The notes beneath the pieces were generated by a model. That model worked only from the letters and a program-made list of their open reading frames with translations, ran no database searches and had not been told where the DNA came from. A stretch of 64,000 nucleotides of DNA from Patescibacteria group bacterium. GTDB taxonomy: Bacteria > Patescibacteriota > Minisyncoccia > Phycocordibacterales > Phycocordibacteraceae. The stretch spans positions 158,657 through 222,656 of the forward strand of contig JAUPKX010000007.1 in NCBI GenBank assembly GCA_030837225.1, written 5' to 3'. The first letter of the stretch is position 1; each line of letters begins with the position of its first letter. The translations under genes were made by a program, and so were the position numbers. Below, in pieces: positions 4,125-59,625 of this stretch.

Positions 4125-5879
4125 CTATTCGGAAACCGCTCGCAACACCTCCTCAACCGACGTAATGCCGCGCGTGGACTTATAGAGCCCGTCCTCAAGC
4201 ATCGTGAGCATGCCTTCCTTGCGAGCTTGCGCTTCAATGGCGTCGGGTGCTGCGTTGTGAAGAATGAGCTCGCGAAGCGCAGACGAAAGCATCAAGACCT
4301 CATGAATACCAATACGGCCGGAGTATCCGTCCTCACACTGAGCAGACGGTACCGGCTTGTAGAACGGAACTTTATCCATGGTTGTTCCTTCCTTCACAAG
4401 CTTCTCTTCGAGAAGAGCCTTCATAACATTGTCGAACTTATCGTCGCTAGCAACCTTGCTACGTTCCATCGCATCAAGCGCGTACTGCTCTTTGCCGTCA
4501 CAGAGTCTGCGCACAAGACGCTGACCCATAACCATGCGGAGCGTTGAGACCAAGAGGAATGGTTCCACACCCATGTCCATAAGTCGTGGGATAGCGCCTG
4601 CAGCGGAATTCGTGTGAATGGTTGAGAGTACGAGGTGTCCCGTAAGTGCGGCGTTAATCGCAAGAGATGCTGTCTCCGCATCACGAATCTCTCCCACCAT
4701 GATGATGTTTGGGTCCTGGCGAAGGAGGGCACGAAGACCGTTCGCGAACGTAAACCCTATGGCTGGGTTCACCTGTGTCTGATTCACGCGCTTCATCTGG
4801 TACTCGATCGGGTCCTCAACGGTAGAAATGTTTACGTCCGGCGTATTCAAAATATCGAGGATGGTATAGAGGGTCGTGGTCTTTCCGGAACCAGTCGGTC
4901 CGGAAATCAAAATGATACCCGTAGTCTGTTTCATAGACTGATGCACCCGCTCAAGCCCCGAGCCATGGAACCCGAGCACATCGAGGGTAAATCCTTCGCC
5001 GGTCTCCCTCAACAAACGCATAACGATCTTCTCGCCGTAGTAGGTCGGGAGAAGTGACACGCGGAAGGACACCTTGTCCGCTTCAGTCTCCATCTTGAAG
5101 CGTCCGTCCTGCGGAAGACGCTTCTCATCGAGCTTCAAATTCGCAAGCACCTTGATGCGCGCGGTGATGCCGGGGGCGGCAGTGCGCGGCAACGTCATCG
5201 CGTCGTGCAAGACCCCGTCGATGCGGTACCGCACGAGTACCTCTGTCTCCATGGGCTCGATATGAATGTCGGATGCCTTTTGGATGATGGCGTGACGAAG
5301 CAACGTATCAACAATGCGTACAATCGGCAGGTCCTCGGCCATCTTCTTGAGATCCTCGCCTGATGCCTCGTCTCCAGACTGTCCGTCCTTTATTAGGTTA
5401 ATGCGGCCCGCTTCCGTGGTGATGAGGTCGCCGAACTCTTCCTTTAAAGACTTCTGGTACTGCAGCAGTACATTCTTCAAAGACTCGTCGTCTGTTAGGC
5501 GCGGAAGAATCTTTAGTCCTGTGGTCTTTCGGACCGAATCGATAGAGGGAAGATCCTCAGTATCAAGCATCGCTACCTCGAGCGAGTTTCCGTCCTTCTT
5601 AAACGCAACAATGGAGTGAGTACGTGCAATTGGTTCTGGAATCAAAGAGAGGACGTTCAAGTCGATCTTCTTGTCCTTCAAGTTAACGAACGGGATGCCG
5701 AGCACGTATGCCTTAATGCGACGAAGGCTATCGCTTGAGAGAAGTCCCTGCGCAATCAATATGTCGCCAATGGATTGCTTCTTCCGTTTCGCTTCTTCGT
5801 CTGCAGCATCGACATCCTTTCGAGACACGAGTCCGGAGTCGAGGATAAATTCTTTGAGTTCGCTTTCAGAGACCTGCAT
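4125..5879 (-). CDS. pilB: type IV pilus assembly ATPase PilB (GspE family)
   Basis: GspII N-domain, Walker A SGPTGSGKTTTLY, Asp box, Walker B, His box; likely start MQVSESELKEF at 5879 (track start 5993 is an upstream extension); TATACT -10 just upstream. Confidence 0.9.
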   Translation of the reverse strand: MQVSESELKEFILDSGLVSRKDVDAADEEAKRKKQSIGDILIAQGLLSSDSLRRIKAYVLGIPFVNLKDKKIDLNVLSLIPEPIARTHSIVAFKKDGNSLEVAMLDTEDLPSIDSVRKTTGLKILPRLTDDESLKNVLLQYQKSLKEEFGDLITTEAGRINLIKDGQSGDEASGEDLKKMAEDLPIVRIVDTLLRHAIIQKASDIHIEPMETEVLVRYRIDGVLHDAMTLPRTAAPGITARIKVLANLKLDEKRLPQDGRFKMETEADKVSFRVSLLPTYYGEKIVMRLLRETGEGFTLDVLGFHGSGLERVHQSMKQTTGIILISGPTGSGKTTTLYTILDILNTPDVNISTVEDPIEYQMKRVNQTQVNPAIGFTFANGLRALLRQDPNIIMVGEIRDAETASLAINAALTGHLVLSTIHTNSAAGAIPRLMDMGVEPFLLVSTLRMVMGQRLVRRLCDGKEQYALDAMERSKVASDDKFDNVMKALLEEKLVKEGTTMDKVPFYKPVPSAQCEDGYSGRIGIHEVLMLSSALRELILHNAAPDAIEAQARKEGMLTMLEDGLYKSTRGITSVEEVLRAVSE

Positions 5880-5952
5880 GCTGTTTGTGTGTAAAGTATA
5901 GCGCGCCGCGAGATGAATCGCGGCGCGCATATGGTTTATGTCGGGGAAAGAA

Positions 5953-6348
5953 TCAGTCGTCGTTCTTGAGTGGATGCGGCCAAAACACCACAAAGCCTAT
6001 CCTCTCAACCTTCTCTCCCTCAGAAGATTCATGTTCACCTGTGAACTTCTTGAAGGTGTACCCGTCCGCCATGAAAAGCCGCTCGGCGTGTAGGAGCACG
6101 CTCCCGGCTTCAGGATACTCAGCGGGCAGGAGAATGGTCGTCGAGAAATTGCCTTGAGAAGCTTCCAGGTCGATTCTCTCAAGCCACGTCCCCTCATATG
6201 CTCGGCGCACCGTAACCTCGATACTTGTCGAAGCTTCAGGCTTCTGGGTGGGATCGAATATTCTGAAGACATCTTCGGCGCTTGCCTGCGCAAGTGCTCC
6301 CAACGCCTTGTATCCACTACTCTCTGCACGGTTCATCAGAACCTCCAT
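5953..6348 (-). CDS. hypothetical protein (131 aa from MEVLMNRAESSG)
   Basis: ORF with GAGGATTAACTATG RBS at internal Met; no recognised domain. Confidence 0.4.
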   Translation of the reverse strand: MEVLMNRAESSGYKALGALAQASAEDVFRIFDPTQKPEASTSIEVTVRRAYEGTWLERIDLEASQGNFSTTILLPAEYPEAGSVLLHAERLFMADGYTFKKFTGEHESSEGEKVERIGFVVFWPHPLKNDD

Positions 6349-24315: not shown

Positions 24316-25911
24316 ATGCCACCACTCAACGACCCAAAGAAGGACCCTGCGACAACTCCCACTCCTGCACAAACTGCGGCCAACATAACTGTCGCGCCCG
24401 AGGATCGTTCAAAATATATCCGTACCATGGCCAAAGACATGGCCACGCTTTCCGGAAACCCTCCCGTTCATGCACCAACAAAGAAGCTGCCCGCGAAGGA
24501 AGAGACTGTTGCGGGCGTCACCCTAAAGACTGAAGAGCGTCCGTTCTTTGAGAAGCCGCAATCGAGAGAAGAGCGCGAGGCAGATGTGCCAATCGCACTC
24601 CCGTCCATGCAGGAAGCGAGCACCGTAGTAGAAGCAGCACCGAATCCAGTTGAAGTGCGCGCAGCAGAGCGTGCCGCCGTACTCGAGCGCCTTCGCCAGA
24701 AAGTTGGGGAGAGCGCACAGATGTCCATCCAAGATTCTCCTGCGCCCGAAGTACCAAGCCCTGCACAGGTTCCAGCAGAGAAGTCGTGGCCAGATATTCC
24801 CGTACCTGATTTTTCAGTACCCGAGACGCCGAAATCTGAGTGGGCTAACATTCCTGCTCCTGCTCCGCAGTTTGCGCCGCTCGCAGAACCCGTGCCGTCG
24901 AGACTTCCTCCTGTTGGGAAGGAGTCGTATCGTGAACCTATTGAATCAAGCGAGCCTGGGCGTCCACTTGCTCCCGCTGGTCCTGACGTAATGCATACCT
25001 ATTCGAGTGATTTCTCGAACCGGATCGACACCAAGAGTGCGTCCACGTTCTCCGTGCTTGCTGCTGAACAGGACTCTCAGACAAAGACCGCCGCAGTACT
25101 ATCTACACCAAAGAAGAGCCCCGTTAAGGCAATCGTTGCTGTTGGTACAGGCATCCTGCTTCTCGCACTCGCAGGTGGCGGTATCTTCGCTACGTATCAG
25201 TTCGTTATGACCATGCGCGACACACCAATCGCATCGCTTACTGTTCCCTCAATTGTATTTGCTGACGAGTACCGTGAACTCTCGGGCACCGGAAACGAGC
25301 TGATGAGTGCTTTCAAGTCCGCGGCAAACGGCGCACTCGTGCCGGGCAACGTTCTCGTTACCTATATCCTTACCGATTCGAACGGGGAAGACGGCTCTGT
25401 GCTTCGAGGTCCTGCGGGCGGCGCTGCCTTTGTTCGTGCGCTTCAGGTTCCTGCACCTGACATACTCCTTCGAAATATCGCAGAAGAGAGCACGACTGGT
25501 GTAGTGAACGCGGAAGGGAACACAACACCGTTCTTCGCACTTCGTGTCGATTCGTATGAGCGCACCTATGCGGGCATCCTTACCTGGGAACCACTCATGC
25601 ATCGGGACCTCGGACTTCTGTACCCACTCTATGCAGTTGAAAACGCGCCAGCTATAGAAGAGACGATTGCAACAACAACTGCTACTTCAACCATCGCAAC
25701 AACAACGAAGGCAGCTCCCGTGTCCTCAATTGAAGCGTCTGCCCGCACCCGATTTGAAGACGCAATTGTCGCGAACCATGATGTGCGTATCCTTAGAGAC
25801 ACTGAAGGACGTTCTCTTATTCTCTATGGATACGCAGACAAGCGTACGCTCCTTATTGTCCGTGACGAGGCTTCCTTTGAGGCTCTCCTTGCACGCCTGA
25901 AGGCTGAATAG
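24316..25911 (+). CDS. Pro-rich hypothetical membrane-anchored protein
   Basis: Low-complexity P/A/E N-terminal half, TM helix AIVAVGTGILLLALAGGGIFATY; TATAAT at 24298-24303 only about 12 nt before ATG. Confidence 0.5.
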   Translation: MPPLNDPKKDPATTPTPAQTAANITVAPEDRSKYIRTMAKDMATLSGNPPVHAPTKKLPAKEETVAGVTLKTEERPFFEKPQSREEREADVPIALPSMQEASTVVEAAPNPVEVRAAERAAVLERLRQKVGESAQMSIQDSPAPEVPSPAQVPAEKSWPDIPVPDFSVPETPKSEWANIPAPAPQFAPLAEPVPSRLPPVGKESYREPIESSEPGRPLAPAGPDVMHTYSSDFSNRIDTKSASTFSVLAAEQDSQTKTAAVLSTPKKSPVKAIVAVGTGILLLALAGGGIFATYQFVMTMRDTPIASLTVPSIVFADEYRELSGTGNELMSAFKSAANGALVPGNVLVTYILTDSNGEDGSVLRGPAGGAAFVRALQVPAPDILLRNIAEESTTGVVNAEGNTTPFFALRVDSYERTYAGILTWEPLMHRDLGLLYPLYAVENAPAIEETIATTTATSTIATTTKAAPVSSIEASARTRFEDAIVANHDVRILRDTEGRSLILYGYADKRTLLIVRDEASFEALLARLKAE

Positions 25912-29101: not shown

Positions 29102-32100
29102 ATGCAGCACCTCGAAGGCCTTAACGACGCGCAACGGGAAGCCGTCCTAGCCACCGAGGGTCCGGTCTCAGTCCTCGCGGGTGCCGGATCGGGCAAAACA
29201 CGGGTTCTAACCACCCGCATCTACCATCTTATAAAGGAAGGGGTGCCCGCTAACCGGATTCTCGCCGTTACCTTCACCAACAAGGCCGCCCGAGAGATGA
29301 GAGAGCGCCTCGCGCACAGACTCGGGGATAGTCCGCTCCCGTTTGTAGCTACGTTCCATGGCCTTGGCCGGGATATTCTCCAGCGATACGGCAGTCGCAT
29401 TGGTATCTCTCGTTATTTCACGATATTTGATCGCGATGACTCGAAATCCGCCATAAAGAGGGTATTGAAGGAGATGGATATCGACCCAAAGGAGATGAAT
29501 CCAAACTTTGTCCTTTCCCGCATCTCGAAAGAAAAGGGAGAAGGCTCCACTCCCGATGCTTTCCGTGAGAAGTACGCACAGAAGAGCTTCCAGTCCCGTG
29601 TTATCGCTGAAGTCTGGCCCAAGTACGAAGCAATACTCAAGAAGGAGAAGGCGCTCGACTTCGACGATCTTATTTGTCTTCCGGTGCGCTTGCTTCGCGA
29701 GCACGAGGACATCCGTAGGGAAGCGGAGCAGCTCTACAGCCACGTACACGTGGACGAGTTCCAAGACACCAACGAACTGCAGGGCAAGCTCGTCGACATG
29801 CTCACACAACCACAGAACAATGTGTTCGTGGTAGGGGATATTGACCAGTGTCTTCTTGCCGGAACAGAAGTGCGCATGGCAGATGGTTCGAAAAAATCTA
29901 TCGAACTAATTCAAGAAGGGGATTCTGTTCTGTCTAATTTTGGAAGTGGGGATATGCGGGCCGCAAGCGTTATAAGAGCCATGAAGCGAGAGTTCTCTGG
30001 AGACTTGGTTCACATCATCACTATGTCTGGACGCACCCTTACAAGCACGCCGGAGCATATTCACTTTGCCGGATACCGACTAGGTGTCGTACCCCAGAAA
30101 TACTTTACCTACCTGATGTACAAAAAGGGGAAAGGGTGGCGTCTTGGCGTCTCGCAGACCTATACCAACGGCCAGCGCGCGCCCATGATCGGATTTCAGC
30201 AGCGATGCAACCAAGAGCACGGGGACAGTGTGTGGATTGTTGGCGTATTTGACTCGGCACAGGAAGCACGCGTGCACGAGTACAAACTCTCGTTAACGTA
30301 TGGCATTCCAACGCTCCCTTTCGTAGCGCGAAAGGGAAGCGTAGGCGGGTATATCCATGACCAGGAAACGCTTGATGCGGTATTCGCATCATTCGATACT
30401 GATGCCGCCGCAAGAAAACTCTTATCAGACCGTGGACTCTCTCTTTCCTATCCCCATCATCGTGCTCAAGCAACGCGCAGCAACAGAAGGAATATTCTTA
30501 TCACACTATGTGGGGACCACAGGGGTAGCACACCCATGCATCGCATATCGATTGTTGGGAGCGATGATATAGGAAAAGAGGCACTGGTAGCGGCAGGATT
30601 TTCAGTACGTTCAGCAGGGTTAGGTTCGATGAGTTGGAGATTTGAGACCGCCCATGCCGATTACGGCAAGGCGAGAGAAATCTCTGATCGACTCCTCATA
30701 ATATTTCCAGATGCTCAGGTCGTAGAAACCGCGCGTCTCGGAGGAAAGAAAACAAACCCTAAGGATTCGAACTCATTGCCATTTCTTCCCGCTGCCTCGG
30801 TGCTGCCAGGTATGGCCATGTTCGACGACGAAGCTGGATGGGATATCGTCGAGTCTGTAGAACGTGTTCCTGGGAACAAGATACCCGTCTATGACTTAAA
30901 CATTGAAGGGACACATAACTTCATTGCAAACGGTCTTTCAACACACAATTGTATCTACACCTGGCGAGGCGCTACAATCGAGAACCTGCTCAAGTTCGAA
31001 GAGCAGTACGAGAACGCAAAGACCATCGTGCTCGCGCATAACTATCGTTCAACAAAAACAATTGTTGCTGCAGGAAACCAGATAATCGAGAAGAATCAGA
31101 ACCGCAAGGATAAGCATGCAGTAACCGACAACGCGGATGGGGAACCGATACGCTTACACATTGCGCGCAACGCAGAAAGCGAAGCTCGATGGGTGGCGCG
31201 TGAAGCGAGGAAAGCTATACGGGAAGGCGTTTTACCTGAAGAAGTTGCCGTACTGTTCCGTACGAACTTCCAGTCTCGTGCTCTTGAGGAAGCGTTCCTC
31301 TCAGAAGGCCTCCCATACAAGGTGCTCGGTACGCGCTTCCTTGATCGCAAAGAAGTGAAGGACGTACTCGCATGGGTCAGACTTGCACTTGATCCAGAAC
31401 GCGAAGTGGACCGCATCCGCGCCGTACAGGCACCAACGCGCGGAATAGGGAAAGTGACCCTCGGCAAGCTTATCGACGGAAAGAGGGACACTTTGAAGCC
31501 TGCAGAAGTGAAGAAGGTAGCGGCATTCGAAGCTATCGTTATGGAACTGAACGAACTCGCAAAGATTGCGGTGCCGAGCGAATTCGTAAAGCTCGTCATT
31601 GAGCGCTCAGGATTAGCCGAAGCGCTGCGTAAGGGCGGGGAAGAGGACGCCGAGCGCCTTGAGAACGCGAAGGAGCTCGCAACCTTAGCCAGCCGCTATG
31701 ACGGCATGCCAGGAGAGGAGGGAATTGCAGCATTTCTGGCGGAGTCCGCCTTAGCTGGCGACCAAGACGAGCTCGACGCACCAGGCACTGCCGGCATTAC
31801 CCTTATGACCGTACACGCAGCCAAGGGACTTGAGTTCGATACCGTATTTGTTACCGGCATGGAGCAGGGATTGTTCCCGCACGAAGCGAGAGAGGGGGAG
31901 AAGCGGGACGAGGAAGAGGAGCGCCGCTTGTTCTATGTAGCGGTTACGCGCGCAAAGCGCAGGCTTAATCTCACGCTCGCAACCGTTCGTCGCATCTATG
32001 GCACCGACTTCGCCTCGGAACCTTCCATGTTCATCCGCGACATAGACGAGGGGCTTATCAGTTTCTCAGAAGGGGACGAGCTCTATGGAGAGCGTACGAT

Positions 32101-32110
32101 ATACATCTAG
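29102..32110 (+). CDS. uvrD: UvrD/PcrA-family DNA helicase interrupted by an intein in motif III
   Basis: Walker A AGSGKTRVLT, DEFQDT, then VVGDIDQ | intein | CIYTWRGA, downstream helicase motifs IV-VI. Confidence 0.9.
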   Translation: MQHLEGLNDAQREAVLATEGPVSVLAGAGSGKTRVLTTRIYHLIKEGVPANRILAVTFTNKAAREMRERLAHRLGDSPLPFVATFHGLGRDILQRYGSRIGISRYFTIFDRDDSKSAIKRVLKEMDIDPKEMNPNFVLSRISKEKGEGSTPDAFREKYAQKSFQSRVIAEVWPKYEAILKKEKALDFDDLICLPVRLLREHEDIRREAEQLYSHVHVDEFQDTNELQGKLVDMLTQPQNNVFVVGDIDQCLLAGTEVRMADGSKKSIELIQEGDSVLSNFGSGDMRAASVIRAMKREFSGDLVHIITMSGRTLTSTPEHIHFAGYRLGVVPQKYFTYLMYKKGKGWRLGVSQTYTNGQRAPMIGFQQRCNQEHGDSVWIVGVFDSAQEARVHEYKLSLTYGIPTLPFVARKGSVGGYIHDQETLDAVFASFDTDAAARKLLSDRGLSLSYPHHRAQATRSNRRNILITLCGDHRGSTPMHRISIVGSDDIGKEALVAAGFSVRSAGLGSMSWRFETAHADYGKAREISDRLLIIFPDAQVVETARLGGKKTNPKDSNSLPFLPAASVLPGMAMFDDEAGWDIVESVERVPGNKIPVYDLNIEGTHNFIANGLSTHNCIYTWRGATIENLLKFEEQYENAKTIVLAHNYRSTKTIVAAGNQIIEKNQNRKDKHAVTDNADGEPIRLHIARNAESEARWVAREARKAIREGVLPEEVAVLFRTNFQSRALEEAFLSEGLPYKVLGTRFLDRKEVKDVLAWVRLALDPEREVDRIRAVQAPTRGIGKVTLGKLIDGKRDTLKPAEVKKVAAFEAIVMELNELAKIAVPSEFVKLVIERSGLAEALRKGGEEDAERLENAKELATLASRYDGMPGEEGIAAFLAESALAGDQDELDAPGTAGITLMTVHAAKGLEFDTVFVTGMEQGLFPHEAREGEKRDEEEERRLFYVAVTRAKRRLNLTLATVRRIYGTDFASEPSMFIRDIDEGLISFSEGDELYGERTIYI
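29849..30949 (+). mobile_element. intein (367 aa) within uvrD
   Basis: Starts Cys (CLLAGTEVRMADG), block B GRTLTSTPEH, C-terminal VYDLNIEGTHNFIANGLSTHN followed by +1 Cys; flanking extein halves re-form helicase motif III. Confidence 0.8.
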
Positions 32111-32977: not shown

Positions 32978-33994
32978 ATGGCTCATTCTACCCGCACCCT
33001 CCGCATCGCAGGCGCATCTTTACTCGCTGTTTTCATGGTCGGCGGCACATATCTTTCGACAGGACCTAATCCCTTCTTTGGCATGACGCGCATCGCAGGC
33101 GCGCAGTCCTCAGAAGAACTTCTTCGTGAGTATGCCGCTAAGGATAGCGACGCTGACGGACTTCCTGATTGGCAGGAATCCTTGTATGGGACCGATCCCT
33201 TGAATCCTGAATCCTTCCAGGCAGGGATTAAGGACGGGGAAGCGGTTGCTCAGGGTCTTATCGAGCCGAAGGTTGTTGTTCGTCCGGAAGAGGAACCGAT
33301 TGACCCGAATAGTATCCCGGGTATCGATGCGGTTCCTGATTCGCTCACCGATCGATTCTCTCAGACTCTCCTAAAGCAGTATCTGCTTAATAAGGGGACC
33401 GAACCACCCACACAAGAGGAAATACTCGCGTTCGTGCAGCAGGGTGTCGCGGAACTCTCCGCGACCTTTGTGCCGAAAGATGCCTACAGTTCTGCACAGG
33501 TGCGCTCTTCCGGTACTTCCGGGGAAGCTGCTCTGCGTGCGTATGCGGCACAAGTAGATGCTGCATTTGAAACACATACCGTGTCCTCAGAGAAGAACGA
33601 GCTCTTCTATTTCGAGGATGCTATGAAGGGCAGCACGAGTGCTCTTAAGAAGATTGCTGATATCAGCGAGGCATACACCAATATCGCTGACGCGCTTATG
33701 GACATCCCGGTACCACAAGAAGCACAGCGTGCTCACCTTTCGATCGTGAACGCGCTCATGCAGATGAGTGATGTGACCGAGCACATGGCTTCAATGGAGA
33801 GCGATCCACTTCGAGCGCTCATGGGTATCGGACTGTATCAGCAGTCTGCTGACCGGGTTGTTACCGCCCTTACCGGCATGCACGGAATCTTTACTGCTCT
33901 ACAGGTAACGATACCGGCTGGGACGGACGGATATGAACTGGTTCAGATGGCGAACTATGCCGCGCAGGTTTCTGCTAAGAACTCAGCACAATAG
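32978..33994 (+). CDS. membrane-anchored hypothetical protein, first gene of T4SS-like operon
   Basis: N-terminal TM LRIAGASLLAVFMVGGTYL; no recognised domain. Confidence 0.45.
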   Translation: MAHSTRTLRIAGASLLAVFMVGGTYLSTGPNPFFGMTRIAGAQSSEELLREYAAKDSDADGLPDWQESLYGTDPLNPESFQAGIKDGEAVAQGLIEPKVVVRPEEEPIDPNSIPGIDAVPDSLTDRFSQTLLKQYLLNKGTEPPTQEEILAFVQQGVAELSATFVPKDAYSSAQVRSSGTSGEAALRAYAAQVDAAFETHTVSSEKNELFYFEDAMKGSTSALKKIADISEAYTNIADALMDIPVPQEAQRAHLSIVNALMQMSDVTEHMASMESDPLRALMGIGLYQQSADRVVTALTGMHGIFTALQVTIPAGTDGYELVQMANYAAQVSAKNSAQ

Positions 33995-33995
33995 T

Positions 33996-35477
33996 ATGTC
34001 TTTCTTCTCAAACTCTCGCTCCATACTTGCAGGACTCGCGTTTCTCCTCATGCTCAGCGTAGCGACGCCAGCTCATGCGCAGGTTCCAATTCCAGCACCA
34101 CAACCTGTTGTAGACGTTTTGGGTGTTCCTGTTCAAAAACTGAATCTGATAGAGAGTATCGTAAGTGCCGCGAATAGCGCGGCTGATCACACGCTCGAGT
34201 ATGTTTTGAACGGGCTCGCGTGGGATGTCGCGAACCTCGCCATTGAGTCCATGACGAAGAGTATCGTTAACTGGATTAACTCGGGCTTCGAAGGCTCTCC
34301 TGCCTTCGTTACGGATCTCGAATACAACTTGCGCGGCTTAAGCGATGCGGTCGCCGACCGTTTCTTTGATGAGCTTGCGGTATCTACGCAAGCCATTTTT
34401 GAGGCTAATGGCCAGGACAGAGTGCTCGACGCTGTCCGGCTCGCATATTACCTGCGCACGAGCCCTGAATCCTTCTATGTACGGTACCCAAATACTCTTG
34501 GCCAGGTAAGTTCAGACCATCGCGCATTTCTTGATGGGGATTTTAGCCAGGGAGGCTGGAACGCCTGGATTTCAGCCAGCCTTAACCTGACCAACAATCC
34601 GTATGGTCAGCGAGCACTTCTTGAGGACGAGCTTTCAGGACTCCTCGCAAGCGCAACAGGCAACCGTCTTCAGGAATTGTCGTGGGGAAGCGGTTTCCGC
34701 TCACTACGTGCGTGTGACACCGAAGGTACGGGACCCGCAATTGCCTCCTCTACGGAAATCAGCCTGAGCGGTGTCGAGCCGTGTGCTTTTGGAGAGATGC
34801 GTACACCTGGCTCGGTGATCCAGCGCCAGTTGAACGATGCTCTTGGTTCCGGTAGGGATCGGCTCATCGTTGCGGATGATTTTAACGAGATCGTCGGTGC
34901 TCTTCTAAACCAGCTCGTCGGCCATGTACTTGGTGCAAACAATTCTGGAGGTTTGAGTGGAGTTTCTCGCCCATCAGCTGGTGGCGGTGCTTCGTTCCTC
35001 GACCGGTCAACAGATCCTTCGCAGAATACGGGAAGTGGTGTTCGTACTGCTGCTTCCTTCACCGCAACAATCGAGGATCAGCGTCGTATCGTTAAAACAT
35101 ATCAAGCGAACTGGGAGAAGATACGCGGCGCAGCGGATACCGCAGCAGCAAAGTGCCCGAACAACTCTGACGCGGAGAACGTAGTGACCAGAGCACAAGC
35201 GGCACTAATAAAGGCGGCGGATGCGTTAGCGAAGTTCGATGACCTCCTTTCGCGCATTGCAGCAGCGAATGCTGCGGGAGGGAATCAGAGTACCGCAATA
35301 TCAGGAATTGCGAACGATTTCACTATTCTTAGCCGTTCAGTAATTGTTCCAACTGGAGAGGAGATAGCAGAAGCCAAGATAGAGTCGCAGGATACTGGAG
35401 ACCTCGAGCCAGGCTCGCTCTACAGCCAGATGGTGCGTGCTGCGAAAGCTACCTCATGCCAGGCGAGTGGGGAGTAA
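33996..35477 (+). CDS. secreted hypothetical protein (T4SS-like operon)
   Basis: Signal peptide MSFFSNSRSILAGLAFLLMLSVATPAHAQ; track start 33933 overlaps previous gene. Confidence 0.45.
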   Translation: MSFFSNSRSILAGLAFLLMLSVATPAHAQVPIPAPQPVVDVLGVPVQKLNLIESIVSAANSAADHTLEYVLNGLAWDVANLAIESMTKSIVNWINSGFEGSPAFVTDLEYNLRGLSDAVADRFFDELAVSTQAIFEANGQDRVLDAVRLAYYLRTSPESFYVRYPNTLGQVSSDHRAFLDGDFSQGGWNAWISASLNLTNNPYGQRALLEDELSGLLASATGNRLQELSWGSGFRSLRACDTEGTGPAIASSTEISLSGVEPCAFGEMRTPGSVIQRQLNDALGSGRDRLIVADDFNEIVGALLNQLVGHVLGANNSGGLSGVSRPSAGGGASFLDRSTDPSQNTGSGVRTAASFTATIEDQRRIVKTYQANWEKIRGAADTAAAKCPNNSDAENVVTRAQAALIKAADALAKFDDLLSRIAAANAAGGNQSTAISGIANDFTILSRSVIVPTGEEIAEAKIESQDTGDLEPGSLYSQMVRAAKATSCQASGE

Positions 35478-35527
35478 TTCCTATGATACGGACCTTACTT
35501 GAGAGGATTCGTAGGGGAGGATTGTCT

Positions 35528-37645
35528 ATGAAGCTACCGGTATCTGCATTTCTCGCAGGGTTTCTACTCGTAACACCACTGACTGCACAGGCAGCGGGTG
35601 CTGCTGATGTTCTTTCATGGGTTGGTAGGCAGGTGGGTGGGGCATTTGTCGACATCTTGTCTTTAATGGTTGTGCCGATAGCGTTTGTGTTCCTTTCGAT
35701 TTCAAATTTCGTACTTTGGGTCTCTGGACTCGTATTCAACTGGGCAGTTATCCGGACCGTATTCCAGTTTGGAACCTACTTTGGCACCTCTGATGAGATG
35801 TTAACCGCTTGGGGCGTCATGCGGGATGTCGCCAACATCGGCCTTTTGTTCGGTTTCATATTCATGGGAGTGCTTCTCATCCTGAACGTTGAGGGGGGAG
35901 GGCATGGACACGGGGGAGGCATCAGTGCCAAGAAGGCTATCCCGAGGCTTCTTATATTCGCCGTGCTTGTGAACTTCAGTTTGTTCACCACTCAGGCGGT
36001 TATTGATGTGTCTAACGGCCTTGCCTCGGTGTTTGCTGAGCAGGCAGGACAGAAGTGTGATCTTGTTGGTGATGCTGAGAAGTGCGCGAATCTAGGAATC
36101 GCGTCCGTTATATCTCAGCGTGCAGGCATAACGACTATTTTTGCAGGCGGCCCCAACCCACTTACTGATCCGCTAAAGACTGCTGTAGTGTATGTCGGTC
36201 TTTCAATATTCGTCATGATTACGGCGATGGTCCTTTTGGCTGGAGCCATCATGTTTATCTATCGTGCAGTGGTGCTCTCGTTCCTTATGGTTACGTCGCC
36301 CATAGGCTTTGCGGGTATGGCGATTCCTTCCCTTAAGAAAATCGCAGACGAGTGGTGGAGCAAACTAATCTCTCAGGCGTTCTTTGCTCCAGTGTATCTC
36401 CTTTTGATATTCATTAGCCTCAAGCTAACTGAGACGTTGGCTAAGGTCTCAGTGGAGGGTGGGGGTAAGGGCAGTCTTGCGAGTGCGCTCGCTGGAACCG
36501 GAGGAGAGCCGGGCACCGAGGCAGGGAATATACAGATTGTGCTCGTGTTTATGGTTGTTATTGGGTTCATGATGGCGTCCCTTGTGACAGCAAATAAGAT
36601 GGGGGCTGTGGGAGCGAAGTTTGCAACTAAGACTGCCGGCGCTCTTACGATTGGCACCGCTGGGTTCGTTGGTCGCAGGACGCTTGGAAGGGCTTCGACC
36701 AGAATTGCCAACAATATTAGGCGTTCGCCCCTTGGCGAAACCGAGGCTGGGCGCCGCCTGGCTGGGATTGCAGATTATGGTTCTAAGGCGAGTTATAGCT
36801 TGAGGAATGTGGGTAACAAGGCGTTGAGTGGTGCGGGAGCAGGAATAGATATTGGAACGGCAAATAAGACTGCCGGACATGGATACCACGGCATTGAAGA
36901 GAAGGCAGTGAAGGAACGCGTTGACTATGCCAAGAGTCTTAAGGGCCCAAGAGGAGAATCGGATCAAGAGATGGAGTACCGTCTTGCGCACCAGGAGGCG
37001 AGCCTTATTAACGCAAACAGTAATTACGACGCTGCGGAAACCTCACTGTCTACATCGCAAGCAGCGCGTAACTCACAGCAAATGGTTCGAGATAACGTCG
37101 CGTTCTCTGTTGCCGAACAAGAGAGAATTATCGCCAGCAATCCAGCTGATACAGATGCATACAGGGTGCTCGCTGAACTTAAGTTGCAGCTTGCAAAAGA
37201 AGAACAGGCGCTTACTCAATCAGACCGAGACCTTAAGAAGGCGAATGATACCTTGGCAAAAGCTACAACTGACCGCGCTAACGCAATGAAGGCTGCAGAA
37301 AACACTGATCGAGGCTACGTGGAAGAGAAGGATCGTCAAAGAGGCTATGCCCGTAACCTAGACTCACGTGCGCTTATAGTAGGAGAAGACGGAAAGCCTG
37401 TTCGAGGACCCGCAGGACGTCCTCGCGGAGCCTTTGATTTAATCTCAGGAGATCATGCTTTCACACTTGCACACCACGCAGAACACGAAGCCTCCGGAGA
37501 CATAGTTAAGTATGCAGGTAAGGATGCAACGGAGCGTGCACTGGACACCCTTAAAAAACAGATGAGTAAGGCTGATAAGCCAGCAGATGCACCTGCACCA
37601 AGCACAAGTGGACCATCTACGGGCGGTGGCGGTCCTAGTCATTAG
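35528..37645 (+). CDS. VirB6/TrbL-like polytopic membrane protein with C-terminal coiled-coil extension
   Basis: GGAGGA RBS before MKLPVSAFLAGF signal; six or more TM helices with Gly-rich loops; long charged coiled-coil tail. Confidence 0.55.
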   Translation: MKLPVSAFLAGFLLVTPLTAQAAGAADVLSWVGRQVGGAFVDILSLMVVPIAFVFLSISNFVLWVSGLVFNWAVIRTVFQFGTYFGTSDEMLTAWGVMRDVANIGLLFGFIFMGVLLILNVEGGGHGHGGGISAKKAIPRLLIFAVLVNFSLFTTQAVIDVSNGLASVFAEQAGQKCDLVGDAEKCANLGIASVISQRAGITTIFAGGPNPLTDPLKTAVVYVGLSIFVMITAMVLLAGAIMFIYRAVVLSFLMVTSPIGFAGMAIPSLKKIADEWWSKLISQAFFAPVYLLLIFISLKLTETLAKVSVEGGGKGSLASALAGTGGEPGTEAGNIQIVLVFMVVIGFMMASLVTANKMGAVGAKFATKTAGALTIGTAGFVGRRTLGRASTRIANNIRRSPLGETEAGRRLAGIADYGSKASYSLRNVGNKALSGAGAGIDIGTANKTAGHGYHGIEEKAVKERVDYAKSLKGPRGESDQEMEYRLAHQEASLINANSNYDAAETSLSTSQAARNSQQMVRDNVAFSVAEQERIIASNPADTDAYRVLAELKLQLAKEEQALTQSDRDLKKANDTLAKATTDRANAMKAAENTDRGYVEEKDRQRGYARNLDSRALIVGEDGKPVRGPAGRPRGAFDLISGDHAFTLAHHAEHEASGDIVKYAGKDATERALDTLKKQMSKADKPADAPAPSTSGPSTGGGGPSH

Positions 37646-39565: not shown

Positions 39566-41380
39566 ATGGCACTACTCGACTTCCTCGGAAAGAATAAGAA
39601 GGATGAGGCTCCCGCAATGGCACCGGTACTTCCGAAGGACATCTACGCGGAAGGGGAACTTCAGCTCGCTGACGCTATCGCGCCTGCGGCGCTTAGGGTG
39701 GGTCCGCGCGAGCTCGAACTCGGTGAGAAGGTGTCTCGAACGTTCTATACCATCTCTTATCCACGCTTCCTTGTTGATAGCTGGTTCACGCCAATCATCA
39801 ATCTCGACAAGGTGTTCGATGTTGCTATATTCGTCCATCCTATTGAGACCGGTTCCGCACTTCGAGGATTCCAGAAGAAAGTGGCGGAAATCGAGAGCCA
39901 GATATCAGACAGGGAAGAGAAGGGTTTGGTGCGCGACCCGATGCTCGATACGGCGTACCGAGATCTCGAACAGCTCCGCGATCAGCTTCAGCAGGCTGAG
40001 GAGCACATCTTCGAGGTAGGGCTCTATATAACCCTCTATGGTGATTCGAAGGAGGATCTCGACAAGATTGAGGGTGATGTTCGTGGCATCTTGGACGCGA
40101 AACTCGTCTACACGAAGCCAGCACTCTTCCAGCAAGAGCAGGGGTTCCGTTCGACACTCCCTTTGGCAAACGACGAGCTTATGGTAACGAGCAAGTTGAA
40201 TTCGTCGCCTCTTTCCTCGATATTCCCATTCGTGTCCTTTGACCTTACGAGTGACCGCGGCATCCTGTACGGCATCAACCGCCACAACGCCTCCTTGATC
40301 CTCTTCGATCGCTTCTCGCTTGAGAACTACAACTCGGTAGTGTTCGCGAAGTCCGGTTCCGGTAAGTCCTATGCGGTGAAGCTCGAGATACTGCGAACGC
40401 TTATGTTCGGTGCAGACGTTATCGTTATCGACCCTGAACGCGAGTACGAGAATCTCGCTTCAGCGACCGGAGGCCGCACCTTTAATATCTCGCTCTCTTC
40501 GGAGCACCACATCAATCCGTTCGATCTTCCACCGGTTAAAGAAGACGAGGAGCCGTCCGACATTCTCAGGTCTAACATTATCAACCTGGTTGGTCTCTTC
40601 CGCATCATGCTCGGAGGACTTACACCCGAGGAAGACGCTATCGTCGATCGCGCTATCACTGAGACCTACGCCCTTAAAGACATTACTGGGGACGCTGACT
40701 TCACGGGCGTAGAGCCGCCGCTTCTTTCAGACTTCGAGAATGTGCTTTCGGGCATGGAGGGCTCAGAGTCGCTCGTTATACGCCTCTCGAAGTATACGCA
40801 CGGTACCTGGGCCGGGTTCATCAACCAGCCGACCAACATCGATATCAACAAGCAGTTCATCGTCTTCTCGGTGCGCGACATGGAGGATGAGCTGAAGCCG
40901 GTGGCGATGTATATCATTACGCACTTCATTTGGAACGCGGTCCGTCACGAGCTCCGCAAGCGTCTTCTCGTGATCGACGAGGCATGGTGGATGATGAAGT
41001 CGGAGGATACGGCATCGTTCCTCTATAGCGTCGCGAAACGCGGCCGCAAGTATTATCTCGGTGTTGCAACGATAACGCAGGACGTTGAGGACTTCTTGAA
41101 GAGCCCGTACGGTCGCCCAATTCTCACCAACTCCTCAATGCAGCTCCTGTTGAAGCAGTCGCCAACGACGATTAACGTACTCAAGGAAACATTCAACCTA
41201 ACCGATGAGGAGAAGTTCCTGCTGCTTGAGTCGGGAGTGGGGGAGGGGCTCTTCTTTGCAGGACTCAAGCATGTCGCCATTAAGGTCGTCGCATCGTATA
41301 CCGAGGACCAGATCATAACTTCAGATCCGTCACAGCTTCTGCAGATAAAGCAGGAGAAGATGCGCAATGAGGCCGCATAA
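39566..41380 (+). CDS. VirB4/TraE/CagE-family conjugative/type IV secretion ATPase
   Basis: Walker A FAKSGSGKSYAV, Walker B LLVIDEAWWMM, DUF87/AAA_10-like architecture. Confidence 0.85.
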   Translation: MALLDFLGKNKKDEAPAMAPVLPKDIYAEGELQLADAIAPAALRVGPRELELGEKVSRTFYTISYPRFLVDSWFTPIINLDKVFDVAIFVHPIETGSALRGFQKKVAEIESQISDREEKGLVRDPMLDTAYRDLEQLRDQLQQAEEHIFEVGLYITLYGDSKEDLDKIEGDVRGILDAKLVYTKPALFQQEQGFRSTLPLANDELMVTSKLNSSPLSSIFPFVSFDLTSDRGILYGINRHNASLILFDRFSLENYNSVVFAKSGSGKSYAVKLEILRTLMFGADVIVIDPEREYENLASATGGRTFNISLSSEHHINPFDLPPVKEDEEPSDILRSNIINLVGLFRIMLGGLTPEEDAIVDRAITETYALKDITGDADFTGVEPPLLSDFENVLSGMEGSESLVIRLSKYTHGTWAGFINQPTNIDINKQFIVFSVRDMEDELKPVAMYIITHFIWNAVRHELRKRLLVIDEAWWMMKSEDTASFLYSVAKRGRKYYLGVATITQDVEDFLKSPYGRPILTNSSMQLLLKQSPTTINVLKETFNLTDEEKFLLLESGVGEGLFFAGLKHVAIKVVASYTEDQIITSDPSQLLQIKQEKMRNEAA

Positions 41381-56769: not shown

Positions 56770-57455
56770 GTTACGAAGACATGTCGCTTGAATCTTATGG
56801 GCCCTCTGGCTCCGACCCTGTACCCGAGCTCACAACGTTTGATAGTATCGAGCATCATGCACAGACACTAGAAAGCGTGATGGATGAGCGCGAAGCAGAG
56901 CTCTTACGAACATTCGAAACAATACACACGCAAACTCCTGAGCAGGAGAGAGTTCTAGAGGCACTTAAAGAACGGACGCTTGCGCTTTCAGGCCCGCGGA
57001 TTGATTTAAAGATAGCTGCACAAACGGCTGCGCTGACGGTAGCTCTCGAAGGTCTTATGTCAGGAACAGAAGACCGCTCGCCAGAGAGTGAGCTACAAGC
57101 AGCGCGGCTTATGACAAAGAATCCAGAACTCGCAGACATGCTCATGCAAAGGATTTTTGCCATGCCAGAGCATCTCGGACATGAGGGATCTCACACCTCT
57201 GAAGCGAATACAAAACTACGTGCTGAAGCAAAAGAAGTGCTTCAGGAGATGGAGGGCTCCGACAGCAAGGTTTTTAAAGGTGTTGCTCTCCGTACCGCAG
57301 AGCGGATAACGCGAGCGCTTATAAGTGCAGGCACACTTGGTGTTGGAGGAATTGTGTATGATTCTGCGAAGGATCTGTACGTGAATCTGCGCGCACGGAG
57401 TGAACTACGAACGAAGCAGAGACTCATGGCGTCTACTACCATTCTTACGTCTTAA
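56766..57455 (+). CDS. hypothetical protein (229 aa)
   Basis: Helical, acidic; no recognised domain. Confidence 0.45.
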   Translation: MSYEDMSLESYGPSGSDPVPELTTFDSIEHHAQTLESVMDEREAELLRTFETIHTQTPEQERVLEALKERTLALSGPRIDLKIAAQTAALTVALEGLMSGTEDRSPESELQAARLMTKNPELADMLMQRIFAMPEHLGHEGSHTSEANTKLRAEAKEVLQEMEGSDSKVFKGVALRTAERITRALISAGTLGVGGIVYDSAKDLYVNLRARSELRTKQRLMASTTILTS

Positions 57456-59134
57456 TCTCGCGGAAGATCGACAACCCTAAACACCTCGTCGAGCGACGTT
57501 TGTCCCTCAATCGCTTTCAATACGCCGTCCTGCGCCATGGTGAGGAATCCCTGGCGACGTACCGACTTCGCAATGTCGCCCTCGCTCGGATTGTCTCTAA
57601 GGAAGTTTCCAAGCTCGTCGTCCATGAATATAACTTCATGGACGCCCTTTCGGCCCTTGTAGCCTGTCTCTTCAGCGCTCTTTGGATCAGGTGCCCAGAC
57701 TAAATCTATCGATGCAGGAAGGAGACTCTTGTCCTCAACGGTTGAGAGTACCTTCTCCATGAGTCGCTTCTGCTCGTCGGTCGCGGGCACTTGTTTACGA
57801 CTTTCAGGGTCAAGGGTGCGTACGAGACGCTGGGCCATAGCAACCGAGATTGCGGATGCGAACGTCTTCGGATCAACGCCGAGATCGACGAGACGAGGGA
57901 AGGTACCAGCGGCATTGTTGGTATGAAGTGTCGAGAAGACGAAGTGCCCGGTGAGAGCAGCCTGCACTGCGGTTGCTGCAACCTCAGCGTCACGCACCTC
58001 TCCAACCATAATCACATCAGGGTCTTGGCGAAGTACGGAACGAAGTCCCGAGGCGAAGGTGTACTGCTTGCCGTCAGTCTGCGTCTGCACGATGCCAGGG
58101 AGGTGGTACTCAACCGGGTCTTCAATCGTAACGATCTTAATCTCTGGGGTATGGATGTGGCGAAGGAACGCGTAGAGCGTCGTTGTCTTTCCGGATCCTG
58201 TCGGTCCCGTAACGAGGAGCATGCCGGTTGGGCGCGTAATCTCAGTCTTCAGACGTTCAAGCAGGTTCGTGCGGATGCCCAGATTTTCAAACGAGACGCC
58301 GAGGATGCTTGGGTCGAGAATACGCATAACAAAAGACTCACCGTATGCTCCAGGAATAAGTGACGTACGGATTTCAACTTCGGTATCTCCTACGGGCACG
58401 GAGAACCGACCATCTTGTGCGCGGTCCCGGATATTAATTTTGAGTCCCGAGAGAAGCTTGATGCGAGACGCAAAGAGGTTATAGGTATGGGCATCAAAGG
58501 TATATGCGTCCATAAGAGAGCCGTCGACACGGAGTCTCAATCGTATGCCAGTTTCCTCCGGTTCGATGTGAATGTCGGACGCCTTGAGTGCGAATGCAGT
58601 AGCGAGGATGAACTCAAGTACACGCGATACTTGGGCTCGCGCACCAGCCTTAAGTGTTTCGTCGAGCTGGCTGCGGAGCGCAGCGAGGCTCGTAAGCGTC
58701 CCGCGGAGTTCGTGGAGTTCATCGCCGCGAATATCGAAGACACCTGCTTTCGATTCGCTTGCGAGTGAGAGTTCAGCATAGCGTGCATACGCTTTGTCGA
58801 GGGATTTATTTGAGACCAAGAAACGGGAGAGAATAAATCCTTGTGACTCGAGTGCGTGCTCAATCTGCGTAAGTGTGATGTTGCTCGGGTTTCTGAGTGC
58901 TATGGAGAGATGCTTGCCAGACTTTTCAAATGCTACAACTTCAGCTTCGCGCGCCTCTTTCTCAGGGATGAGACGAAGCGCATCCACATTGAGCGGCATG
59001 ATAGTGAGGTCGGTATAGGTGAGTCCGTATTTCTCGGACAGCACGCGCGCCAGGTCCTCTTCTTCTTGTTCACGCAAGGACGCGAGCTTCGCGTCTTCAG
59101 CATCGGTATCAAAATGTGCAGGCATTAGCACCAT
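57452..59134 (-). CDS. GspE/PilB-family secretion ATPase (second paralog)
   Basis: Walker A VTGPTGSGKTTTLY, Asp/His boxes, N-terminal GspII-like domain. Confidence 0.85.
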   Translation of the reverse strand: MVLMPAHFDTDAEDAKLASLREQEEEDLARVLSEKYGLTYTDLTIMPLNVDALRLIPEKEAREAEVVAFEKSGKHLSIALRNPSNITLTQIEHALESQGFILSRFLVSNKSLDKAYARYAELSLASESKAGVFDIRGDELHELRGTLTSLAALRSQLDETLKAGARAQVSRVLEFILATAFALKASDIHIEPEETGIRLRLRVDGSLMDAYTFDAHTYNLFASRIKLLSGLKINIRDRAQDGRFSVPVGDTEVEIRTSLIPGAYGESFVMRILDPSILGVSFENLGIRTNLLERLKTEITRPTGMLLVTGPTGSGKTTTLYAFLRHIHTPEIKIVTIEDPVEYHLPGIVQTQTDGKQYTFASGLRSVLRQDPDVIMVGEVRDAEVAATAVQAALTGHFVFSTLHTNNAAGTFPRLVDLGVDPKTFASAISVAMAQRLVRTLDPESRKQVPATDEQKRLMEKVLSTVEDKSLLPASIDLVWAPDPKSAEETGYKGRKGVHEVIFMDDELGNFLRDNPSEGDIAKSVRRQGFLTMAQDGVLKAIEGQTSLDEVFRVVDLPRD

Positions 59135-59160: not shown

Positions 59161-59625
59161 ATGCTGCTTGGTACAATTAGGGACATGAGACCAGCCCGTA
59201 CGATACAGGACCTCCAAGACCTTGAAGCGGAGGCTCGAGAGTTTGTGTCTGCACTCCAACCAAAACAAGACAGTGCGACGTTCGTTACGCTCTCAGGGAA
59301 CCTTGGGGCCGGGAAGACGGCGTTTACGCAAGCCGTTGCGCGAACGCTCGGTGTCCTCGAGCCCGTTACGAGTCCCACCTTTGTACTTGCGAAGTCATAC
59401 GACCTTTCTGGAAAAGAGTTTTCTAAACTCGTGCACATCGATGCGTACCGTCTTACGAAAGGGAAGGAGCTTCGTGCGCTCGATTTCACACATACGCTTG
59501 AAGATCCTCGAACACTCGTGATACTTGAGTGGCCAGAGATGGTAGAGGACGGGCTTCCACACGCTGACGTCGCCATAACTCTCACAGTGCGCTCAGACAC
59601 CGAACGCGACATAGCCTATGCCTAA
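59161..59625 (+). CDS. tsaE: tRNA threonylcarbamoyladenosine biosynthesis protein TsaE
   Basis: P-loop GNLGAGKT and SPTF motifs. Confidence 0.75.
   Translation: MLLGTIRDMRPARTIQDLQDLEAEAREFVSALQPKQDSATFVTLSGNLGAGKTAFTQAVARTLGVLEPVTSPTFVLAKSYDLSGKEFSKLVHIDAYRLTKGKELRALDFTHTLEDPRTLVILEWPEMVEDGLPHADVAITLTVRSDTERDIAYA

Follow-up and report, generated by a model that had tools for sequence, protein, structure and literature searches.

Our analysis of a 64,000-nucleotide stretch of DNA from a Patescibacteria group bacterium (assembly GCA_030837225.1, contig JAUPKX010000007.1, positions 158,657 to 222,656 of the forward strand; hereafter the window, to which all coordinates refer) centres on an intein that interrupts helicase motif III of a gene of the UvrD/PcrA family. 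That the segment from 29849 to 30949 is a genuine class 1 intein is practically certain. The reading that we favour as reasonably likely is that of a mobile, bifunctional element in a bacterium of the candidate phyla radiation (CPR)/Patescibacteria type, for which we infer both splicing by a Hint domain and nuclease activity by a module of about 220 residues inserted within this domain. This module would be a homing endonuclease of neither the LAGLIDADG nor the HNH type, with a GIY-YIG-like catalytic core at its N-terminal end (table 1).

By its sequence, the host protein is a member of the UvrD/PcrA/Rep family of superfamily 1A helicases without a match at equivalog level to either PcrA or UvrD. 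In a Pfam scan its exteins match UvrD-helicase (PF00580, 251.6 bits) and UvrD_C (PF13361, 216.5 bits), and the best NCBIfam model for the spliced protein is PcrA (634.6 bits, i.e. below the equivalog cut-off of 911.2), with UvrD at 504.4 bits (below its cut-off of 1144). The 1002-residue open reading frame contains the helicase motifs GSGKT, TFTNKAA and DEFQDT as well as GDIDQ/CIYTWRGA, where the slash marks the insertion point. Removing the insert in silico yields a product of 635 residues in which motif III is restored and which aligns with the PcrA model in one stretch (residues 4-620 on profile positions 2-637) instead of the two seen before. Judged from this sequence, the helicase is probably functional once spliced, and the long open reading frame should thus not be read as a fusion or an error. 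A preliminary description of this DNA, made from its letters alone, had already called a 367-residue intein here; its coordinates are exact to the base, and the stop-free translation, which starts CLLAGTEVRMADG, finishes GTHNFIANGLSTHN and is flanked by VVGDIDQ and CIYTWRGA, is identical to the residues it quoted. The placement in motif III, with restoration of GDxDQ[CS]IYxFRGA upon removal, is borne out by the continuous PcrA match and by empty orthologues (see below), and the proposed class 1 signatures, i.e. Cys1, a block B TxxH and a terminal HN followed by Cys+1, are all present and invariant across the aligned homologues, with Cys or Ser at +1 as detailed below.

Intein family models, suggested in that description as a check, do match the insert above their cut-offs (Pfam Intein_splicing, 47.3 bits against 35.8, E 2.5e-12; NCBIfam intein_Cterm, TIGR01443, 27.7 bits against 15.6), and Hint, Hom_end_hint and intein_Nterm all match its first 35-70 residues below cut-off. 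Block B reads T67-P-E-H70, and T67, H70, D349, H356, H366 and N367 are invariant in 81 of 81 aligned sequences, as is C1 in all 80 that cover this position; D-2 and Q-1 of the N-extein are kept in 80 of 80 aligned intein-containing homologues. When PDB sequences were searched with the intein using phmmer, only Hint blocks matched, at both ends in the DnaX, CDC21, RadA and DnaB mini-inteins. In an AlphaFold model of all 367 residues (predicted local distance difference test score, pLDDT, 86.6; predicted template modelling score 0.83), the N-terminal part of the Hint domain is rich in beta-strands (pLDDT about 95), and the Foldseek matches of this model in the PDB are all inteins, BIL domains or Hedgehog Hint domains, including PI-SceI (E 1e-7) and gp41-1 (template modelling (TM) score 0.82 on the target). 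The insert is thus predicted, by its model, to have a Hint fold. With its canonical residues, this domain (residues 1-79 and 301-367) would excise the intein post-translationally: Cys1 would undergo an N-S acyl shift and the resulting thioester be attacked by Cys+1, Asn367 would cyclize with the assistance of His366, and an S-N shift would finally rejoin VVGDIDQ to CIYTWRGA, giving an active 635-residue helicase. In base composition, the intein has no distinct guanine-plus-cytosine or skew signature.

The central module is where this intein departs from familiar ones. Intein residues 76-309 or so match no Pfam, NCBIfam or PHROG family, and a PHROGs scan with the centre and with the whole intein returned only noise (E>0.03). 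No LAGLIDADG family of Pfam matches the insert at E<=1, although the same kind of scan picks up LAGLIDADG_3 in further inteins of UvrD proteins, and there is no match to an HNH or His-Me finger family, in line with the earlier remark that the centre shows no clean LAGLIDADG pair. Nor does the predicted structure have the alpha-beta-beta-alpha-beta-beta-alpha fold of LAGLIDADG enzymes, as the model of the centre shows another topology. Yet this family-less region is the best-conserved part of the gene. Compared with the six closest relatives, identity is 62-65% in the exteins, 60-65% in the Hint halves and 77.5% in subdomain 1 (residues 80-165); across distant phyla the corresponding values are 39-42%, 56-57% and 57%. 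Invariant in all 81 aligned sequences are Y88, R98, G100, R119, E123, D126, W129, R141 and E144, as well as P154, T155, R161, H203, C221, H231 and W263; Y88, R98, G100, R119, W129 and E144 are still invariant in 65 sequences thinned to less than 55% pairwise identity. Subdomain 2 is characterized by the motifs RRxxxxxLCGDxRGxxPxHR and WRxE. Taken together, the module is very probably conserved and functional rather than degenerate. An antisense open reading frame inside the intein (30105-30473, minus strand, 122 residues) was also considered, because antisense and out-of-frame endonucleases have been reported in phage inteins; it matches no family, the conserved frame is the sense one, and it is probably spurious.

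Since the structure search with the whole intein was dominated by Hint matches and was uninformative for the centre, the latter was modelled separately from an 18-sequence alignment (pLDDT 84.3). The two models agree on strands at residues 84-92 and 96-104, a helix at 116-122, a strand at 127-134 and a helix at 137-151, followed by two helices within 172-194 (172-181 and 185-194) in the linker and a second alpha/beta domain at 215-295. Subdomain 1 is thus predicted to contain a three-stranded sheet with the beta-beta-alpha-beta-alpha core of GIY-YIG nucleases. A Foldseek search of BFVD, a library of predicted viral structures, with the centre gave three strong matches, apparently bearers of the same module, and in its tail (E 0.01-0.3) GIY-YIG homing endonucleases recur: NUMOD3 proteins, 'GIY-YIG domain-containing' entries, a Seg-like 'site-specific intron-like DNA endonuclease', 'GrpIintron_endo' and GIY-YIG_COG3680. 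When the 65 diverse members were scanned against Pfam at E<=10, GIY-YIG (PF01541) gathered more of them than any other family, with three members (best E 0.031), and no other family came up repeatedly. Because the predicted structure and these several weak signals agree, we consider a GIY-YIG-like nuclease fold with a non-canonical active site probable. As a side note on one BFVD match, A0A8S5TZY8 (782 residues, Myoviridae sp. ctCuC1; E 1.3e-8, 27% identity over 135 columns) is named 'Adenine specific DNA methyltransferase', which may be a mis-annotation or may place the module in a different host gene.

The residues at the presumptive catalytic places can be described more closely. Y88, invariant in the 65 diverse as well as in the 81 genomic sequences, lies in the middle of strand 1. 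Strand 2 carries the motif [YFW]-R98-[ILV]-G100, in which the glycine of YIG is kept and its tyrosine is replaced by an invariant arginine, i.e. Tyr-x-Gly itself is missing. R119 is invariant on the helix 116-122 and is followed at +4 by the likewise invariant E123 and at +5 by His124; E144 is invariant on helix 2, at the position of the metal-binding glutamate. A precedent for such deviation is Hpy188I, which uses the GIY tyrosine as general base, has a lysine where YIG enzymes have their tyrosine, bears an arginine on the 'arginine helix' and holds the metal through a glutamate (PMC3045582). By analogy, Y88, R98, R119 and E144 appear to fit the Hpy188I scheme, and E123 does not. Y88 in the first strand may thus serve as the general base, with R98 at the YIG tyrosine position like Lys73 of Hpy188I, R119 on the arginine helix and E144 of the second helix as metal ligand, and a helical linker that contains the invariant H203 would connect this core to the second alpha/beta domain, the probable recognizer of target DNA.

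Several observations weigh against this assignment. Both AlphaFold models were built on shallow alignments (8 and 18 sequences), only three of the 65 diverse members touch PF01541, at E>=0.03, and the window sequence itself is not among them. A subdomain 1 profile found nothing among PDB sequences (hmmsearch, E<=10), and neither did a direct hhalign comparison with I-TevI (whose sequence as used is 100% identical to the annotated gene of phage T4). Against a profile of the I-TevI family (11 members, built from phage records), hhalign gave a non-significant alignment (probability 1.9%, P 0.026), whose best local segment places E144 on Glu75 of I-TevI and whose equally non-significant global path places Y88 on Tyr6 and R98-I-G100 on Tyr17-V-Gly19. 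The proposed residue equivalences rest on position in the secondary structure and on this weak alignment. Moreover, the YIG tyrosine is an arginine and the canonical His/Tyr four residues past the arginine of helix 1 is E123, so any chemistry would have to be non-canonical. A UvrC protein, desired as an internal GIY-YIG reference, is not encoded in the window. It could thus be that the module is functional but its first subdomain is not of the GIY-YIG type, the resemblance being of the kind that a small alpha/beta unit can show by coincidence, with the chemistry residing elsewhere, e.g. in the invariant H203, C221 and H231 of the subdomain 2 region, or with the module representing a new nuclease or DNA-binding fold. 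We regard this as unlikely, because two structure-search methods applied to two libraries and the weak Pfam matches converge on the GIY-YIG superfamily, and because an invariant Tyr in strand 1, x-G in strand 2, Arg in helix 1 and Glu in helix 2 appear to occupy the catalytic places of GIY-YIG enzymes.

A genome scan with an 8-sequence intein alignment, covering one genome per species, found relatives encoded by at least 563 genomes, the best 80 of which match residues 1-367 or up to the end of the contig; in 80 of 80 of these genomic loci, helicase and intein form a single uninterrupted frame. The closest among the matches listed (62-68% identity) are CPR/Patescibacteria bins labelled Kaiserbacteria, 'Saccharibacteria', Pacebacteria and Zambryskibacteria. 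Other carriers belong to Holophagaceae/Acidobacteriota, Rubrobacteraceae, Ktedonobacterales/Chloroflexota, Nitrospira and the Alpha-, Beta- and Gammaproteobacteria, and include the cultured Azospirillum, Caenispirillum bisanense, Roseomonas, Hydrocarboniphaga effusa AP103 and Geothrix fermentans DSM 14018. Among 1.84 billion cluster representatives, the module profile matched 1,920 proteins at E<=1e-3, of which 1,065 reach E<=1e-10. A first protein homologue search had returned only proteins shorter than about 645 residues, many of them fragments, which is an artefact and does not indicate pseudogenes; for the full-length intein-bearing helicases of about 1000-1100 residues, that of the window included, it took the searches of cluster representatives and of genomes. 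All 12 of the proteins with an odd length or module position turned out in a Pfam scan to be UvrD-family helicases, and in the seven of these with a Pfam match spanning the junction the intein directly follows PF00580 position 252 or so, i.e. motif III. A module tied to one site in one gene family is, as far as sequences tell, what would be expected of a site-specific homing endonuclease. Some relatives have lost the first half of the centre (P0026, P0033, P0036 and P0044), and others are mini-inteins of about 145 residues at the same site (P0066, P0067 and P0070); this range from full-length via partly deleted to mini-intein is that expected of a cycle of homing, decay and loss.

Side by side with these, some UvrD-like helicases carry additional inteins. 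Four proteins of 1872-2536 residues (P0194, P0219, P0229 and P0265) have two or three inteins each, one of which, at an upstream site, contains LAGLIDADG_3, besides the GIY-YIG-like one in motif III. In the UvrD-family protein P0211 (1210 residues), a second intein at another site (residues 250-544 or so) contains an in-frame match to DUF559/MTES_1575 (E 6e-13), which is Vsr-like, i.e. of the PD-(D/E)xK type, and may be another undescribed type of in-frame intein endonuclease; in the intein literature cited here, Vsr-like endonucleases appear only beside split inteins or in antisense.

Empty sites provide the counterpart to these intein-bearing alleles. A metagenome scan with the spliced extein yielded 80 loci, and each of the 78 that cover the junction is crossed by one straight tblastn segment without insert. 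In three of them (L082, L083 and L084) the empty genes are 93%, 81% and 78% identical to the window exteins, and these three together with about 18 further loci share the gene order of the window, i.e. a LysM/M23 peptidase gene on the opposite strand, the helicase, rsmA and an unknown gene. By this common gene order they represent orthologous empty sites, which rules out that the segment is an integral domain of the helicase. The syntenic empty sites read VGDIDQ-T/S/C-IYTWRGA, and in L082 the empty motif III consists of GTGGTGGGGGACATCGATCAG directly followed by ACTATCTACACGTGGCGCGGT. Of the 81 intein-containing alleles, 61 have Ser and 20 have Cys at +1, the latter in 19 CPR-type or unclassified bins and one Nitrospira bin; at the equivalent position of the empty alleles T (23), N (22), S (20), C (5), A (3) and L (1) occur. 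The nucleophile at this position thus goes along with the presence of the intein. Most empty relatives have Thr at the position equivalent to +1, and three empty alleles in the clade of the window (L085, L095 and L099; junction motif VGDIDQCIYTWR) have Cys there, which might have been left behind when an intein was precisely lost or might mark sites favoured as recipients.

A closer comparison of the window with L082 shows exteins that are 95-100% identical per 20-residue window, except for the last 25 or so residues before the junction, where identity drops to 55-65%; the +1 codon is TGT in the window and ACT in L082, and the C-extein is identical from +2 on. This hot-spot of divergence at the junction is suggestive of a co-conversion tract, as it resembles one, although the loop is variable in general. 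Likewise, the intein being more alike across phyla than the exteins could, at the sequence level, reflect mobility, though stronger constraint could explain this too. The element also occurs in phages. In the UvrD-like helicases of two IMG/VR phage contigs (L172 and L173), this site is occupied by the same intein, module included, and the module is found inside helicase genes of 67 catalogued phage genomes (E about 1e-12), namely of E. coli Phapecoctavirus and Justusliebigvirus phages and of Bacillus, Streptococcus and Campylobacter phages. The comparison with UvrD inteins proposed in the preliminary description leads to one of these, E. coli phage Bas62 JohannJBalmer (MZ501084), whose record reads 'intein-containing UvrD / Rep family helicase precursor' with a mat_peptide 'intein': its junctions (VVGDEFQ/C...SHN/CIYQFRG) mark the same insertion point, and its central motifs match those of the window. 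Phages are plausible as vectors of the intein. In the proposed homing cycle, uvrD alleles that lack the intein would be cleaved by the module within or close to the sequence encoding motif III, and repair from an intein-containing copy would spread the element. Overall, active homing at motif III of UvrD-like helicases is, in our assessment, somewhat more than an even prospect.

Alternatively, the module could have been domesticated and no longer act mainly in homing; the intein, before or after its excision, might then benefit the host or the phage, e.g. as a nuclease active in repair or against phages, or as a sensor on which maturation of the helicase depends. Conservation of the module above that of the exteins, and thus of an essential host gene, is not what one usually sees in an endonuclease that is purely selfish, and may point to a different function of this kind; in addition, one study describes inteins as concentrating in the ATPase motifs of repair and replication proteins and argues that this reflects regulatory roles (PMC4760082). 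Against this stand the closest relatives, which do without the module, its sporadic distribution including phages and the tolerance of deletion variants, and we hold domestication to be improbable. That the centre is an inactive endonuclease remnant in an immobile, vertically inherited intein, to which the lack of LAGLIDADG and HNH motifs and of any family match as well as the relatives with partial or complete central deletions might point, is ruled out for a decayed module by high conservation, with subdomain 1 the most conserved part and more than 20 central residues invariant in 81 genomes of many phyla, and is hardly tenable in view of confident modelling of the module, orthologous empty sites in close relatives and the presence of the element in phages. 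Hence, when the preliminary description left open whether the endonuclease was degenerate or of another type, the second option has held up, on account of strong conservation, invariant residues and a predicted fold resembling GIY-YIG, and the first has not.

Table 1. Helicase gene, intein and intein subdomains in the window; domain functions in the centre are predicted.
Feature	Position	Strand	Remarks
uvrD/pcrA-family superfamily 1 helicase gene, intein host	29102..32110	+	1002 codons + stop; Pfam UvrD-helicase, UvrD_C
N-extein, residues 1-249	29102..29848	+	C-terminal end is first half of motif III, VVGDIDQ
Intein, 367 residues, class 1 (Cys1 ... His366-Asn367)	29849..30949	+	between Gln249 and Cys617
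Hint domain, N-terminal part, intein residues 1-79	29849..30085	+	block A Cys1 29849-29851; block B T67/H70 30047-30058
Subdomain 1, intein residues 80-165	30086..30343	+	GIY-YIG-like beta-beta-alpha-beta-alpha, putative nuclease core
Subdomain 1 residues	Y88 30110-30112; R98-L-G100 30140-30148; R119 30203-30205; E123 30215-30217; E144 30278-30280	+	
Loop and helical linker, intein residues 166-204	30344..30460	+	C-terminal end is conserved PHH motif
Subdomain 2, intein residues 205-300	30461..30748	+	alpha/beta domain matching no family; putative DNA-recognition module
Hint domain, C-terminal part, intein residues 301-367	30749..30949	+	block F D349/H356; block G H366-N367 30944-30949
C-extein, residues 617-1002 + stop	30950..32110	+	+1 Cys at 30950-30952, then second half of motif III

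Downstream of the helicase gene, an rsmA/ksgA-like gene (RrnaAD) may begin 26 nucleotides before the helicase stop (32085-32110, with a start at 32085 in the list of open reading frames); the public gene call has it start about 1 nucleotide past this stop, and packing is tight either way. The order helicase-rsmA is kept in about 20 related genomes. Further away, long open reading frames without a Pfam family were found at 24316-25911 and 35456-37645 (Pfam scan), and the region 32978-35477 contains one of 338 residues, likewise without a Pfam family (public gene call), and one of 514 residues at 33933-35477; the unmatched frames span 338-729 residues. With a TraG/VirB4-like ATPase encoded nearby (39566-41380), these frames may specify pilus or secretion components peculiar to the lineage; two PilB/T2SSE ATPases are encoded elsewhere in the window (4125-5993 and 57452-59134). 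A DNA polymerase I homologue (59618-61999) has 5'-3' exonuclease and polymerase domains, and no 3'-5' exonuclease domain was detected in it at E<=0.01.

Inteins in UvrD proteins are not new: Novikova et al. (2016, PMC4760082) count 16 bacterial ones, in Acidobacteria, Actinobacteria, Deinococcus-Thermus, Firmicutes and Proteobacteria, in a text that names neither their insertion site nor the type of endonuclease, and the intein as such is thus ordinary, though found here in a genome of the CPR type. A review puts PcrA/UvrD inteins elsewhere, at the P-loop, a site different from motif III. The nearest known system is formed by the phage UvrD/Rep inteins such as that of Bas62, with the same insertion point (GDxxQ/C...HN/[CS]IYxFRG), the same class 1 residues and, in common, the central motifs YLM..GFRVG..R..E..E..GIPT; the window differs in its CPR-type host, a module about 26% identical to theirs and Cys at +1. 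LAGLIDADG inteins (PI-SceI, PI-PfuI, Tli/Pho VMA) likewise have a nuclease module that interrupts the Hint domain and are the best structural matches to the whole intein, but these matches are confined to Hint (TM score 0.25-0.3 overall), whereas the window centre has no LAGLIDADG motif or Pfam match and is predicted to have another fold.

With I-TevI, I-BmoI and the Seg enzymes, the module appears to share the beta-beta-alpha-beta-alpha core, Tyr in strand 1, x-Gly in strand 2, Arg in helix 1 and Glu in helix 2, as well as a modular architecture in which a linker separates the catalytic from the DNA-binding domain. In contrast to these free-standing or intron-encoded enzymes, however, it sits in-frame in an intein, has Arg for the YIG tyrosine, Glu for the His31 equivalent and a loop of about 11 residues before the arginine helix, lacks NUMOD, zinc-finger and helix-turn-helix modules and shows no significant sequence similarity. 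The GIY-YIG enzymes Hpy188I and PD-T4-3 (9u75), with an identity of about 12%, are restriction or defence enzymes and not intein-borne.

That a nuclease can accompany an intein situated at a conserved position in an enzyme of DNA metabolism is also known from split inteins with a GIY-YIG or Vsr-like gene (Dassa et al. 2009, PMC2677866); there, however, the nuclease is a separate open reading frame between the split-intein halves, whereas here everything is one continuous in-frame polypeptide. At that time, GIY-YIG was 'not known to be present in inteins' (PMC2677866), and a 2025 survey, which records LAGLIDADG and HNH endonucleases in-frame, LAGLIDADG and VSR-like ones in antisense and EndoVII-like ones out of frame, cites GIY-YIG only via the split-intein case (10.1101/2025.01.02.630785). 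We found no description of an in-frame GIY-YIG in a contiguous intein in the open-access literature, to which the search was confined; an earlier one may exist elsewhere. We lean, if only slightly, towards regarding the present family as the first recognized class of contiguous inteins with an in-frame GIY-YIG-type homing endonuclease, i.e. a large and active family in motif III of superfamily 1 UvrD-like helicases, with non-canonical chemistry and a previously undescribed DNA-recognition domain. For annotation, about 1,900 protein clusters bear a conserved module of about 220 residues that has no Pfam family. If our interpretation is true, it would explain how one element colonized the same helicase motif across bacterial phyla and phages, and would provide a compact new pair of nuclease and DNA-binding domains for engineering as well as a testable system, since E. 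coli phages that can be cultured, as well as strains of Azospirillum, Geothrix and Hydrocarboniphaga, carry this intein type. Compared with the LAGLIDADG and HNH enzymes known from inteins, it would then be the third in-frame endonuclease family or superfamily captured by inteins, which bears on the idea of a repeated invasion of splicing domains by free-standing endonucleases.

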